The position numbers and the translations under genes are program-made. Positions 39,414 through 42,784 of a stretch of DNA of 64,000 nucleotides are shown here, in pieces (position 1 is the stretch's first letter; each line of letters starts with the position of its first letter). This DNA comes from an uncultured delta proteobacterium. GTDB lineage: Bacteria; Myxococcota_A; Polyangia; Polyangiales; Polyangiaceae. The stretch is from positions 128,001-192,000 of the forward strand of contig CAVQUB010000002.1 in assembly GCA_963716725.1 (NCBI GenBank), given 5' to 3'. The notes beneath the pieces were generated by a model that did no database searches, had not been told where the DNA came from, and saw only the letters and a list, made by a program, of their open reading frames with translations.

Positions 39414-40034
39414 ATGGCGACTTTGCGGGGCGATGCAACGGACGAAATGCTCATGGTGCGCTACCAGCGAGGCGACCGTGAGGCGTTCGCGGAGCTCGTG
39501 AGGCGTCACAAGACGCCGATCTACAACTTCGTGCTGCGCCACGTTCGCCAAGGCAACACGGCCGAGGACGTCACTCAAGACGTGTTCTTGCGCGTCGTGC
39601 AGAGCGCCAGTGAATTCAAGCACGAGGCCCGGTTTTCCACCTGGCTCTACACCATCGCGCGCAACTTGTGCGTCGACCATCTACGCAAGCAGACCCACCG
39701 ACGGCACGCTTCCTTGGATCAACCCGTCACATCGAATGGAGAAGACTCACGGCCACTGGTCGATCACGTGGCGGACGCCCACCCCCGCGCCAGCGTCGAA
39801 CGCAGCGCAGTTGCAGGCGAGGTGGCGAGCCGCATCTTGGACGCAGTGGAGAAGCTCCCAGACGAACAACGCGAAGTGTTCTTGCTGCGCGAAGTGGCCA
39901 ACCTGCCCTTCAAGGAGATCGCCGAGGTCACCGGCGTCGGAGAGAACACAGTGAAGAGTCGGATGCGTTATGCGCTCGACCGACTCCAAGAAGCTCTGAG
40001 CGATTTCGAAGAGTACGCACGAGCCTTGAGATGA
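39414..40034 (+). CDS. ECF RNA polymerase sigma factor
   Basis: AEDVTQDVF, FSTWLYTIARNLCVD (region 2); LPDEQREVFLLRE..FKEIAEVTGVGENTVKSR (region 4). Confidence 0.95.
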   Translation: MATLRGDATDEMLMVRYQRGDREAFAELVRRHKTPIYNFVLRHVRQGNTAEDVTQDVFLRVVQSASEFKHEARFSTWLYTIARNLCVDHLRKQTHRRHASLDQPVTSNGEDSRPLVDHVADAHPRASVERSAVAGEVASRILDAVEKLPDEQREVFLLREVANLPFKEIAEVTGVGENTVKSRMRYALDRLQEALSDFEEYARALR

Positions 40035-40061
40035 CCCGAGACTGAGCTGAAGGATAGACCC

Positions 40062-41180
40062 GTGGATTGCGAGAAGTTCGACCGAATCGTGCTCGACCTG
40101 CTCTACGACGAGCTGGACGAACTCACGAGCGCCGCGGCGGCGCGGCACACCGAGCACTGCGCCCGCTGCCGCAGCATCGGCTCGGGACTGCGGGCGACCC
40201 GGCAAATTGGGGAGCTTCCGCTGGTAGAACCGCCCTCGGGGCTCGAGCAGCGCATCCTCGCGGCCGAGCGCAACGCCCGGGCAGATTTCCCGTTGCGCCA
40301 GCGGCTCGGGCGCAGCATTTCGGTCATGGCCGGATACGCCATGCGACCGCAGTTGGCGATGGCGGCGCTCTTGCTCTTGATGATCGGCACGAGCCTGTTG
40401 TTCCTCCGAGCCAAGCCCGGTGCCAGAGAGAGCTTGCAGGTCACCGAACGCGGGATCCCCGAGAGCGAGAACGAGACGGTGACCCTGGTGCCCGTGCCGG
40501 CGAAGGCCCGCGCCGGAGAGCCGGCGAACGAAGGGCGCGCGAGCACCAGCGACCGCGATCTCCAACGCGAGCTGTCGCCCGGTGCGGACGAGGGCGAGCG
40601 CGGCTTCGCTGCCAGCCCACCTCCCGCCGCCGCGGCTGCCGCTCCGGAAGGCGCCGAAGAGCGGAAGGATGACCAGGCCTTTTCGTCGGGCCTCGCCGTC
40701 GACGGGGGGTCCGGCGACAACGAGTACGACCAAGCCATGGCGGACTACCGGGCCCGTCGCTACGGCGCCGCCCAGAAGAACTTCGACAACGTCGCGAACC
40801 GCGGCGGGGGCAACGCTCCCACCGCCGAGCTCTTCGCGGCCCAGTCGGTGCGCAACCAGGCGGGGTGCTCGGCAGCCACTTCGCGTTTCGAGTCCATCAA
40901 CAGCAAGCACCGCGGTACCGGCATCGGCAATGAAGCGCTCTGGCAAGCGGGCGACTGCTACCGAACGGCCGGCGATCCCGAGAACGCACGACGCGCGTAC
41001 AAGCAGCTGATCGGAGTTGCGGGCTACGACGGACGCGCCCAGCGCGCGCTGGCCTCGCTCGACGAAGAACCCGTGGCTGCGCGGCAGGAGGCCGCCAAGC
41101 CCAAGCCCGCCGCCAAGCCGGAGCCCCAAAAAGCCGCGCCCAAGGCCGGCAAGCCCCCGCCCAAACCGCCGGCCTACTGA
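40062..41180 (+). CDS. Zinc-binding anti-sigma factor (zf-HC2) with TM and periplasmic TPR domain
   Basis: MDC...HTEHCARC ZAS motif, one TM, C-terminal TPR-like helices. Confidence 0.85.
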   Translation: MDCEKFDRIVLDLLYDELDELTSAAAARHTEHCARCRSIGSGLRATRQIGELPLVEPPSGLEQRILAAERNARADFPLRQRLGRSISVMAGYAMRPQLAMAALLLLMIGTSLLFLRAKPGARESLQVTERGIPESENETVTLVPVPAKARAGEPANEGRASTSDRDLQRELSPGADEGERGFAASPPPAAAAAAPEGAEERKDDQAFSSGLAVDGGSGDNEYDQAMADYRARRYGAAQKNFDNVANRGGGNAPTAELFAAQSVRNQAGCSAATSRFESINSKHRGTGIGNEALWQAGDCYRTAGDPENARRAYKQLIGVAGYDGRAQRALASLDEEPVAARQEAAKPKPAAKPEPQKAAPKAGKPPPKPPAY

Positions 41181-41241
41181 CCGGGGCTCGGGCGCCGAGG
41201 CCGCGCCCCGGAGCAGGAGCCCCATCGGACGCCTGACTCGA

Positions 41242-41737
41242 CTAGTGCCGCCCGGCTGAAGTTCGAGTGGATTCGCCCCTGAGACCTGCGCTCATTTGGG
41301 CTCTCACAGGAAGGGCGGCAGAGCGGAAGGATTTGGGGTGGTCAGGCGTGAGCCTCCGCAGGCCATTTCTGAGCGCGGTCACGTTGAAGTTGACGAGCAG
41401 ACCGACGGGCAACCGCGAAAGGCGCAGATAGGTGATGACCTGCGCTTCGTGAATCGGGAGCAGCCGCTCGACCGCCTCGAGTTCCAGGAGGATACGATCT
41501 GGAAGCGACCAGGTCGAGGCGATAGGCGCAGTCAAGGTGTACGCCTTTGTAGCGGATTGGTAGCGGTCGCTGCCGCTCGAACTTGAGCCGTCGTTTGGAC
41601 AGCTCGGCAGATAGACAGGCCTCATATGCGGATTCCATCAGCCCTGGACCGAGATGCCGATGCACCTCGATCAGCGCACCGATCACCTCGTCCGTCCCAT
41701 CCCCAAATCTTCCGAGCTTTCGCCCTTCCTGTGCCAT
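41242..41737 (-). pseudogene. GxxExxY family (PD-(D/E)xK-like) protein, frameshifted near 41500
   Basis: VIGALIEVHRHLGPGLMESAYEACL...YRLDLV in one frame; DRILLELEAVERLLPIHEAQVITYLRLS..VGLLVNFN in another. Confidence 0.88.
41305..41733. repeat. Imperfect ~34-bp inverted repeats bracketing the GxxExxY gene (41305-41338 and 41701-41733)
   Basis: CACAGGAAGGGCGGCAGAGCGGAAGGATTTGGGG vs revcomp CACAGGAAGGGCGAAAGCTCGGAAG-ATTTGGGG, 29/34 identical. Confidence 0.85.
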
Positions 41738-41754
41738 CCCCGTGTGGTCGGGCC

Positions 41755-42241
41755 TCACTCCGAAACAATTGCGGCTTTCTTCGCAGAAAGTGAGGGGATT
41801 TTTCTGGGTTCGGCCCACGACTTGGGGCGGTACGACCAGCGAAAGGGTCGGTCGGTCTGCAGATACCACGCGACGTACGCGTCGATCCTCGCCGCGAGGT
41901 CGTCGGTGCTTCTACTCGAGCCGCTACGGTGTCCGAGAGAGAGAGGGCGGCCGTCCCGAGCGCGGGGCGTCCGCCAGTCTCTCGCTAGGTGCCGCGCAGT
42001 CGAAGCGCTTGCGCCAGTCGTCCACCGTGCGCACGTGCACCCCGAGGAGCCGGGCGATGTCCGTCGCAGGCACTCCGTCCGCCATCATCAACACGGCCTG
42101 CGCCCGACGAACCAGCCGCTGCTCCGCCCTGGCGGGTCGCAACGCCTCCTCGATCCGCGCGCGCTCTTCAGCCCTCAGCGCGAGCGGAACCGTCGGACGA
42201 CCACCGTGCGCTCGACCCGCGAACGCGCTGTAGTCGATCAT
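41755..42241 (-). pseudogene. IS630 transposase remnant (HTH N-terminus plus extreme C-terminus; DDE core deleted)
   Basis: RRAQAVLMMADG...IARLLGVHVRTVDDWRKRF...LADAPRSGRP (41924-42241); STDDLAARIDAYVAWY..DRPFRWSY (41755-41910). Confidence 0.85.
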
Positions 42242-42306
42242 GTCACCCCACTACACCGACGACACGCACACGGAAAAGAAACCAGCGAAACTTCTGCCGC
42301 GCGGCA

Positions 42307-42708
42307 CTAGTTCTTCGCGGCCTCGCGCACGTAGGCGATGGTGCGTACGAGATCGACGATCCGGTCTCGCTCGTCGAACTCGAGATCCACGAAGCTGACC
42401 CCCATGCCGGGGTTCAGGTTCTCCCCGAGCACTCTGAGCGGGTTCACCCACTGCACCACGCCTTCGATCACGAAGGAGTCGGCCGAGCCCGGGGCCGAGA
42501 AGCGCAACCTCAGCCGCGTACCGATCTGCAACGGTTCGTTGGTTCGCACGAAGATCCCGAGCTCGGAGATGTTGGTGATCGAGGCGTAGAGAAAGGTCTC
42601 GTCGGCCTCGCAGTCCACCGACCAGACCACGTCGAAGCGATCCGCAGCGCGCCGCTCCCTGAGTCGCCGCTCGGAGAAATCCGGAGGATCGTCGTCGTGG
42701 CCCACCAC
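42307..42708 (-). CDS. Stand-alone PilZ domain protein (TIGR02266-like)
   Basis: ERRAADR (RxxxR), NISELGIF, GVVQWV, PGMGVSF; start uncertain. Confidence 0.85.
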   Translation of the reverse strand: MVGHDDDPPDFSERRLRERRAADRFDVVWSVDCEADETFLYASITNISELGIFVRTNEPLQIGTRLRLRFSAPGSADSFVIEGVVQWVNPLRVLGENLNPGMGVSFVDLEFDERDRIVDLVRTIAYVREAAKN

Positions 42709-42784
42709 TGGGGGCTTAGCCCCGAATCGGGGCGATGTCCAAGCCCCTCCCCCGCGGCCGCTGCCCCGGGTTTTTGCCCGCAAC

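Follow-up and report, generated by a model that had tools for sequence, protein, structure and literature searches.

The locus analyzed here lies in a 64-kb stretch of DNA from an uncultured delta proteobacterium (the window, 64,000 nucleotides in full) and consists of a gene of the GxxExxY (PDDEXK_3) family that is bracketed by two inverted repeats, the arms, and lies inside an insertion sequence (IS) of the IS630 family (Table 1). The only profile matches of the gene are to PF13366 and TIGR04256. A break between profile positions 67/68 and 68/69 divides the gene into two frames, and the two halves score 73.8 and 49.2 bits on PF13366 (cut-off 22) and 77.3 and 49.4 bits on TIGR04256 (cut-off 35); intact copies of the gene reach 141.9 bits on the family profile. 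The catalytic residues D75, E85 and K87 are invariant across 27 homologues. Having neither a single frame nor an intact D...E-x-K motif, the window copy is a pseudogene of the GxxExxY family. An AlphaFold model of an intact copy (pLDDT 86.3, pTM 0.79) has its best Foldseek matches, all weak and none reaching E 0.001, in Cas4 SSO0001 (E 6.7e-3), lambda exonuclease and Hjc, all of which are PD-(D/E)xK-fold nucleases, and a PDB sequence search with GxxExxY gave no match at E up to 1.

The initial annotation of this DNA described inverted repeats of ~34 bp (29/34) around the GxxExxY region, and this description holds. The 34 nt at 41305-41338 on the + strand and the reverse complement of the 33 nt at 41701-41733 are identical at 29 of 34 alignment columns, in the order 13 matches, 2 mismatches, 2 matches, 2 mismatches, 6 matches, a 1-nt gap and 8 matches, and a repeat search extends the pair to 41298-41341 and 41697-41740 (44 nt, 75%). 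Local alignment of two 81-nt end windows gave a score of 25 in inverted and of 8 in direct orientation; none of 2932 control window pairs at equal spacing elsewhere in the 64-kb window reached 25 (maximum 21). Each arm is made of CACA followed by three phased 8-nt GGAAG-N3 units, and the gene has its start codon just outside the 5' arm. Direct reading confirms that the repeats overlap the first codons and the tail of the gene, the arm-encoded peptides being MAQEGRKLGRFG on the N-terminal side and PKSFRSAALPV on the C-terminal side. In the model of the intact copy, these arm-encoded tails are disordered (pLDDT <50 at residues 1-7 and 138-146). That the arms are a chance match in GC-rich DNA has next to no probability, and this reading is already refuted by the control pairs, by the retention of the same arms in 32 copies of the element and by the presence of the arm repeat family in 31 of 201 related genomes with almost no control matches.

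The surrounding element is of IS630 type, as had been proposed, on the evidence of its two terminal repeats and of an open reading frame (ORF) with a helix-turn-helix (HTH). In the window this ORF scores 41 bits on NF033545, which is below the cut-off because the N-terminal part alone remains; about 667 bp of the transposase (reference positions 421-1086) are missing. The reference is a full-length copy at C20:66860-68625 of the same genome assembly (G000; 7.9 Mb, 35 contigs, 84% complete), in which the element spans reference positions 17-1752 (1736 bp). A BLAST census with this reference found 32 copies in the genome, in 5 recurrent and several unique structural classes: five of full length, nine of the 1069-bp form lacking positions 421-1086, to which the window copy belongs, four of a 1256-bp form, six of a 644-bp form, two with unique deletions and six that are truncated or rearranged. 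CTAG stands at both ends of each of the 25 two-ended copies, whose flanks are unrelated, as for IS630-family insertion at TA (CTAG) with TA duplication; the C and the G are constant in all 25, and CTAG may be either the target or the element's own end, the two being not separable. The full-length copies have an HTH ORF and a DDE ORF in different frames, and the DDE ORF reaches 181.5 bits on NF033545 (IS630; cut-off 100) and 83.7 on PF13358. The two frames meet at a run of CT dinucleotides (window 41925-41960), and a frame change is required in all five full-length copies. In all three same-genus genomes examined (G093, G344 and G244), the two genes that flank the window copy are adjacent without the IS. 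Because copies have CTAG ends and unrelated flanks and relatives have IS-free sites, the IS630 element is active or recently active; the window copy itself is non-autonomous.

The segment with the gene and arms is retained in 32 of 32 IS630 copies, including every deletion derivative. Alignment of all copies places the frameshift allele in 29 of the 32, among them all five full-length copies; the site is intact only in C13:340437, C20:93865 and C33:68887, all 1069-bp derivatives. An 11-nt duplication in the six 644-bp forms and a 2-nt insertion in C7 and C5:330483 reopen the frame with the catalytic strands scrambled. The catalytic Lys codon is AAG (K) in 18 copies, GAG (E) in 8 including the window copy, and GGG (G) in 6. 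Thus, the decay noted in the initial annotation, a frameshift and an ELEAV motif, is real, but it is not private to this copy, since 29/32 share the frameshift and 8/32 the ELEAV. The GAG variant is spread over several structural classes of near-identical copies, a distribution that points to recurrent change or to exchange between copies. We considered programmed frameshifting in GxxExxY and do not favor it: the site differs from the intact allele at several bases, three copies are intact, and two different compensating indels occur.

How the armed gene came to be in the IS630 element can be read from elements with and without it. The 21 related IS630 loci compared encode transposases of mostly 63-89% identity and belong to metagenome-assembled genomes with labels such as Polyangiaceae and Myxococcales. 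None of them matches reference positions 1189-1714, and in 8 of the 21 the alignment jumps from position 1188 to 1715 within ten bases. This bears out the earlier proposal that gene and repeats entered the IS630 as a unit. The proposal that the arms bound the inserted cassette was right about the existence of a unit but not about its extent: the true unit is larger, 528 bp, with outer ends of IS4 type. Empty IS630 elements have a single GGGCGAATC just inside the terminal repeat, and the filled element has GGCCGAATC before and GGGCGAATC after the insert. The cassette amounts to a quarter of the element and is co-directional with the transposase gene, just after its stop codon.

The boundaries of the unit are clearest in the same-genus genome G466. 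There, 28 matches to the window region at 68-94% identity (most 77-85%) cover the cassette part only, and the 18 fetched loci all match only reference positions 1182-1721, with no IS630 sequence alongside. The homologous G466 unit corresponds to reference positions 1195-1716. Two of the units are complete (526-528 bp) and have an open 147-codon GxxExxY gene (PF13366, 134 bits), the remaining fetched loci being internally deleted. The G466 cassettes end in a perfect 21-bp inverted repeat, CTGAGGCATCCCCTCATTTGG, which occurs 24 times in G466 versus 0 times for a reversed control. Flanking 9-mers agree at 9/9 positions in L127 and L134, at 8/9 in L131, at 9/9 in L128 (at its outer right end) and over 7 bp in L129. 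A target duplication of 12 bp or longer had been entertained and was corrected to 9 bp by these true ends. The cassette end may resemble those of IS10.

The same ends are found with transposases in other genomes of the family. With at most two mismatches, CTGAGGCATCCCCTCATTTGG is present in 31 of 383 family genomes, including G585 (64 occurrences), G451 (47) and G475 (34). The ends of L145, a 2785-bp element of G354 that encodes an IS4-family transposase (170 bits on NF033591, cut-off 152), differ from this repeat at 2 of 21 positions, and in the complete genome G585, a 1404-bp element (L152) with ends CTGACGCATCCCCTCA..., sharing CTGA...ATCCCCTCA, encodes a 423-residue IS4-family transposase (234 bits). 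In Table 1 of PMC2266710, 5'-CT ends and 9-bp direct repeats are given for the IS10 subgroup of IS4, and the definition of a mobile insertion cassette (MIC) in the relevant part of PMC3129680 fits the 528-bp unit. Since like ends bound elements that encode IS4-family transposases and 9-bp duplications are listed for the IS10 subgroup, the unit is best called a mobile insertion cassette. No paired cassette ends at IS-length spacing were found in G466. A terminal-repeat-like match at C1:228037 in the genome of the window was treated as chance, there being no partner repeat and, by eye, no evident transposase ORF adjoining. At L147 (G585:C1:755592-755732), a 141-bp miniature element combines IS4-type ends with an arm remnant (CACAGGGAGGCGG), which points to decay of the cassette family into gene-less miniature elements in other genera as well.

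The arms have a wider distribution than the IS4-type ends. Enrichment of the arms at the flanks of homologues, which the initial annotation had put forward as a check, was found at both taxonomic levels sampled. Among 25 order-level GxxExxY loci, inverted flanks score at least 24 in ten and direct flanks in one (cross-locus null, mean 13, 95th percentile 23); in the arms of these ten, ACAGGAAG precedes units of GCGGGAAG or ATCAGAAG, and an ATG or GTG stands 3 nt ahead of the first unit. At the phylum level, where 28 loci were listed, 2 were dropped (N or short flank) and 26 were tested, inverted flanks exceed the 99th percentile of the null in 10/26 and direct flanks in 2/26, and the arm units are of varied sequence and 7-10 nt long. 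Of 201 family genomes, 31 contain the pattern ACAGGAAG-N3-GGAAG-N3-GGAAG, in up to 245 copies, against 6 control matches in total; it is absent from the four same-genus genomes sampled. None of nine short-match loci fetched from relatives encodes GxxExxY, and four of the nine contain gene-less inverted arm pairs. PF13366 matches were found in three of the five repeat-rich genomes searched (245, 134, 78, 45 and 41 copies), G431 having 27 mostly fragmentary ones, and none in G182 (78 arm copies, 99% complete) or G113 (41 copies, 96% complete). No claim depends on the unpublished genome G388, which contributes one non-positive locus and one alignment row.

Solo copies of the repeat, a further check put forward at the outset, exist as gene-less copies in the related genomes and are few in the genome of the window. 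There, the exact arm 13-mer (1 mismatch allowed) has 77 matches; every copy of the exact window arm sequence, and every extended match, lies inside an IS630 copy. With a relaxed phased pattern, 6 of 69 matches fall outside IS copies, among them a compact gene-less hairpin at C2:245747, and the statement that the genome has no solo arm copies was dropped on this result. A candidate free cassette copy at C14:56549-57090 proved to be a truncated IS630 copy with an internal deletion of its end. The sole GxxExxY paralogue outside the IS630 family in this genome (L003, C14:2120-2464 plus flanks; 72% DNA identity over 117 nt) is not within a single inverted pair, and arrays of a CCCCGCGTG-like repeat in both orientations lie on both of its sides. 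An IS4-type end within 300 nt of GxxExxY was found in 0 of the 25 order-level loci, and such an end in none of the nine gene-less short-match loci. Because the arms flank homologues and form gene-less pairs without an IS4-type end, the armed gene is an entity of its own that lies in an IS4-type frame in one lineage. By the same token, with none of the 25 order-level loci having such an end, the IS4-type frame accounts for this lineage only and not for the movement of armed cassettes in general. In the comparison of filled and empty sites, empty IS630 sites were found, but no pair was found for an armed cassette without the IS4-type frame. Full-text searches under the names GxxExxY and PDDEXK_3 returned no mention of flanking repeats, and under these names we found no published description of the inner unit of gene and phased hairpin.

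The arms also mark the place where the element has been rearranged. In the predicted RNA fold, they close the whole cassette in both the minimum-energy and the centroid structure (z = -6.2), and the arm duplex is predicted at -65 kcal/mol in the sense and -70 kcal/mol in the antisense strand, versus -37 +/- 4 for shuffles. The base of the extended hairpin is reference position 1254, and four independent rearrangements have their junctions at reference positions 1247-1253, within 7 nt of it. These are the junction of the 644-bp form, that of C11:121146, that of C2:112453, where the cassette abuts a different phased hairpin made of CGCCAAG units, and that of C14:36300-36460, where the 5' arm is triplicated with a 74-bp period, each unit comprising the arm and the same 38-nt spacer. 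At the C2 locus (C2:111900-112520), the truncated element copy lies inside the different hairpin, whose arms are three 8-nt CGCCAAG-type units; the cassette meets one of these arms at reference position 1249, and the second arm is situated just past the IS630 end. The empty intergenic spacer of G093 also contains a half-site of similar CGCCAAG type. The breakpoints may stem from cutting at the hairpin base, or from a hairpin that the nascent strand forms while the gap left by IS630 excision is repaired.

Table 1. Features of the composite element in the window
Feature	Position	Strand	Remarks
IS630-family element, 1069-bp internal-deletion derivative, non-autonomous	41242-42310	-	span includes CTAG at each end
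IS630 terminal inverted repeat, downstream end in gene sense	41242-41274		34 nt, 79% complementary to 42278-42311
GxxExxY (PDDEXK_3) pseudogene	41242-41737	-	ATG 41735-41737; frame after the frameshift ends at TAG in the IS630 end, 41242-41244
9-bp target duplication, copy 2	41270-41278		sense GGGCGAATC
IS4-type unit, best called a mobile insertion cassette, without transposase, carrying the armed GxxExxY gene	41279-41806	-	528 bp
Outer terminal repeat, decayed	41279-41299		+ strand CTGAGACCTGCGCTCATTTGG; 16/21 to G466 end, our count
3' hairpin arm	41305-41338	-	complement of GGAAGGGC GGCAGAGC GGAAGGAT; translated as C-terminal tail
ELEAV motif, catalytic Lys codon reading Glu	41470-41484	-	sequence reading
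Frameshift allele	41495-41509	-	between catalytic D and ExK
5' hairpin arm	41701-41733	-	CACA then units GGAAGGGC GAAAGCTC GGAAGATT; translated as N-terminal tail
Leader between outer cassette end and 5' arm	41741-41785	-	last 7 nt are reference positions 1247-1253
C-terminal remnant of IS630 DDE ORF	41755-41907	-	stop TGA 41755-41757; deletion junction 41907
Outer terminal repeat, decayed, gene-upstream end	41786-41806		sense CAGAAAAATCCCCTCACTTTC; 14/21 to G466 end, our count
9-bp target duplication, copy 1	41807-41815		sense GGCCGAACC here (7/9); GGCCGAATC in reference copy (8/9)
IS630 orfA, transposase helix-turn-helix part	41924-42241	-	HTH_23, HTH_29 and HTH_28 matches; NF033545 positions 1-57, 41 bits
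IS630 terminal inverted repeat, upstream end in gene sense	42278-42310		repeat search

The window copy adjoins a PilZ-domain gene (42307-42783, minus strand), and the CTA of the IS630 end (42307-42309, within CTAG 42307-42310) forms the TAG stop codon of this gene; in the three same-genus genomes without the IS, the PilZ gene stops with TGA. In one of them, the spacer equivalent to the IS site (L122, G244:C210:32150-32620) contains four tandem units of ~60 bp with a short palindrome (CCTTGCAGGGCAGCGCC.TGCCC). Upstream of the IS, at window positions 39414-41180, lie a sigma-factor-like ORF and a 372-residue ORF that is anti-sigma-like, both by eye, the latter with weak, below-cut-off TPR matches near its C-terminus; both ORFs are unrelated to the nested element.

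Based on these data, we suggest that the feature forms the innermost of three nested layers of mobile DNA and is now a decayed hitch-hiker, and that its carriers, and not the nuclease, spread the gene; we assign this reading a probability of about 0.78. In this model, the first layer would be the small PD-(D/E)xK-type GxxExxY gene between two arms of three phased GGAAG-N3 units, and the second the 528-bp transposase-less cassette with IS4-type ends in which the armed gene lies. The cassette would have entered once, with a 9-bp duplication, just inside the IS630 end at the tail of the transposase gene, probably by the action of an IS4-family DDE transposase supplied in trans. As the third layer, the composite IS630 would then have multiplied to at least 32 copies at TA/CTAG sites, non-autonomous deletion derivatives included. 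The arms can pair in single-stranded nucleic acid and close the cassette into a stem, and this hairpin may form in vivo during repair synthesis after IS630 excision, or may be cut at its base; either event would explain why deletions end a few bases outside the hairpin and why no cassette has been lost. Because nearly all copies (29/32) have a broken gene, the nuclease is not needed for spread here, and because the unit has outer IS4-type ends and a 9-bp duplication, the likeliest inserter is a DDE transposase acting in trans and not GxxExxY. A strict dependence of the repeats on the nuclease is weakened by G182 and G113, which are repeat-rich without a PF13366 match.

Several results count against this model. 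A search with the L145 protein brought up no IS4-family transposase with these ends in G000 or G466 (assemblies 84% and 73% complete), and hence the enzyme acting in trans is one that we infer from other genomes. In the window, decay has left the outer repeats at 14/21 and 16/21 and the duplication at 7/9, so that the IS4 reading draws on the G466 copies, and L145, at 2785 bp, lacks a 9-bp duplication (2/9). The order-level loci, at 0/25, do not share the IS4-type end. The account of the breakpoints by stalled repair is likewise one that we infer. Finally, a cassette that is kept in 32/32 copies and has undergone three frame-restoring changes (the intact allele and the +11 and +2 indels) could be selected and not passive.

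The last point leads to an alternative in which the cassette is a selected accessory module of the IS630 element, as in a transporter IS, needed in cis or in trans, for example for addiction or as an aid to transposition. Universal retention of a segment that makes up a quarter of the element, deletion end points that pile up just outside it, frame-restoring changes in eight copies and an intact gene in three all speak for such a role. We nevertheless hold it to be very improbable: the frameshift allele is present in every one of the five full-length copies, 14 of 32 copies no longer encode the catalytic Lys, all 21 related IS630 loci do without the cassette, and two frame-restoring events among three ORF indels are about what chance would give (by our estimate roughly 1 in 9). 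Another alternative is an effect of the arms in RNA. Here, the arms would act as a closing stem, like that of 23S rRNA intervening sequences, which is cut by a double-strand RNase or stabilises and insulates the transcript; the cassette would then be tolerated in operons and mobile elements, and GxxExxY would be cargo with a cellular role such as defence or repair. This is compatible with a nested-transposon history and in line with the predicted closure of the whole transcript, with the expected transcription of both arms as part of the gene, where they encode disordered tails, and with the co-directional position directly after the transposase stop codon. On the other hand, an Rfam search of 41100-42450 gave nothing at E up to 1, the duplex is equally stable in the antisense strand, and mismatches in the arms that are G-U-compatible transitions number 4 in the sense versus 5 in the antisense strand (counted by eye), giving no strand signal. 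We regard an RNA-level role as possible, with the odds against it.

The initial annotation had cast GxxExxY as a candidate mobiliser of the repeats, in the manner of repetitive extragenic palindromic (REP) sequences and their RAYT transposases. In the full form of this idea, the nuclease would recognise and cut the phased-arm hairpin and in this way copy the cassette along with its gene-less derivatives, with the IS4-type ends and IS630 as incidental landing places. Much is consistent with it: gene and arms travel together in a fixed layout in which 3 nt separate the start codon from the first arm unit, homologues across the phylum are accompanied by arms with a variety of unit sequences, gene-less hairpins far outnumber genes, and the fragmentary PF13366 matches of G431 are what internal deletion to gene-less forms would leave. 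Likewise, the order-level cassettes, lacking the IS4-type end at 25/25 loci, must have been placed otherwise, four rearrangements fall at the hairpin base, G000 and G466 yielded no cognate IS4 transposase, and the catalytic D, E and K are invariant in 27 homologues. We still judge a self-mobilising GxxExxY cassette unlikely, and the role given to the gene in the initial annotation is not upheld for this locus. The lineage has classical terminal repeats and a fixed 9-bp duplication, as in IS4-family elements; the element multiplied although only 3 of 32 genes are intact; G182 and G113 have 78 and 41 arm copies without the gene; and no filled and empty pair was found for a frame-less armed cassette. 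A 130-residue PD-(D/E)xK nuclease is not known to have strand-transfer activity. Related to this is the idea, which we consider doubtful, that GxxExxY and its hairpin are a distinct, as yet undescribed selfish module in which a structure-specific nuclease recognises the extruded GGAAG-N3 hairpin and cuts its base. If true, the module would gain entry into transcribed DNA and mobile elements, in this case an IS4-type miniature element and then the IS630, and the four junctions no more than 7 nt from the hairpin base would be in vivo footprints of cutting.

The proposed nest can be compared with several known systems. With the 23S rRNA intervening sequences, which carry an S23p/four-helix-bundle ORF, the cassette shares a small ORF enclosed by a long stem of inverted flanks and insertable in transcribed host sequence; unlike them, it lies in an IS between protein-coding genes, encodes another protein family and has no Rfam match. 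As in MICs such as MIC231, which is mobilised by IS231 of the IS4 family, a short transposase-less unit with IS ends carries an unrelated passenger gene (relevant parts of PMC3129680 and PMC2266710), and the 5'-CT ends and 9-bp duplications are those listed for the IS10 subgroup (PMC2266710). Also as for MICs, full IS4-family elements with like ends are found in the same bacterial family, and shorter gene-less derivatives exist. However, the passenger here is bracketed by inner phased inverted repeats that are themselves an independent genome-wide family, and the two cassette-holding genomes yielded no cognate transposase. The outer element has the terminal repeats, TA/CTAG ends and HTH plus DDE_3 transposase in two frames of IS630 elements with passenger genes (transporter IS; PMC3129680), as well as a passenger between transposase and end and multiplied non-autonomous deletion forms. 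It differs in that the passenger is another mobile element and not a plain gene, in that every derivative retains it and in that the passenger ORF exits through the IS end, taking its stop from the terminal CTAG. Finally, the arm repeats resemble REP sequences and their doublets (REPINs) in being short and palindromic, single or in inverted doublets, present in tens to hundreds of copies and patchy among relatives, and a small gene between two inverted copies recalls the RAYT arrangement (PMC3116915, PMC3337134). By contrast, GxxExxY has a predicted PD-(D/E)xK fold and is not an HUH Y1 (IS200/IS605-like) transposase, the repeats are arrays of phased 8-nt units, their abundance is not tied to the presence of the gene, as in the repeat-rich, gene-free G182 and G113, and the gene-bearing form here has DDE-type ends and a target duplication.

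Thus, the nest combines known kinds of element, an IS630 with a passenger, an IS4-type insertion cassette and REP-like hairpins. The locus contributes the identity of the vehicle and the target duplication in one lineage, a natural experiment in which the element spread with the nuclease broken in most copies, and the cluster of breakpoints. GxxExxY proteins are common and often present in multiple copies, and some large myxobacterial-type genomes contain hundreds of copies of the phased hairpin repeat. For one lineage, the locus answers the question of who moves armed cassettes, and it argues against taking the nuclease for the transposase. A natural read-out of hairpin formation in vivo would be provided by the deletion junctions next to the base of the hairpin. 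For annotation, the locus is a warning that many copies labelled "GxxExxY family protein" in such genomes are IS-borne pseudogenes.

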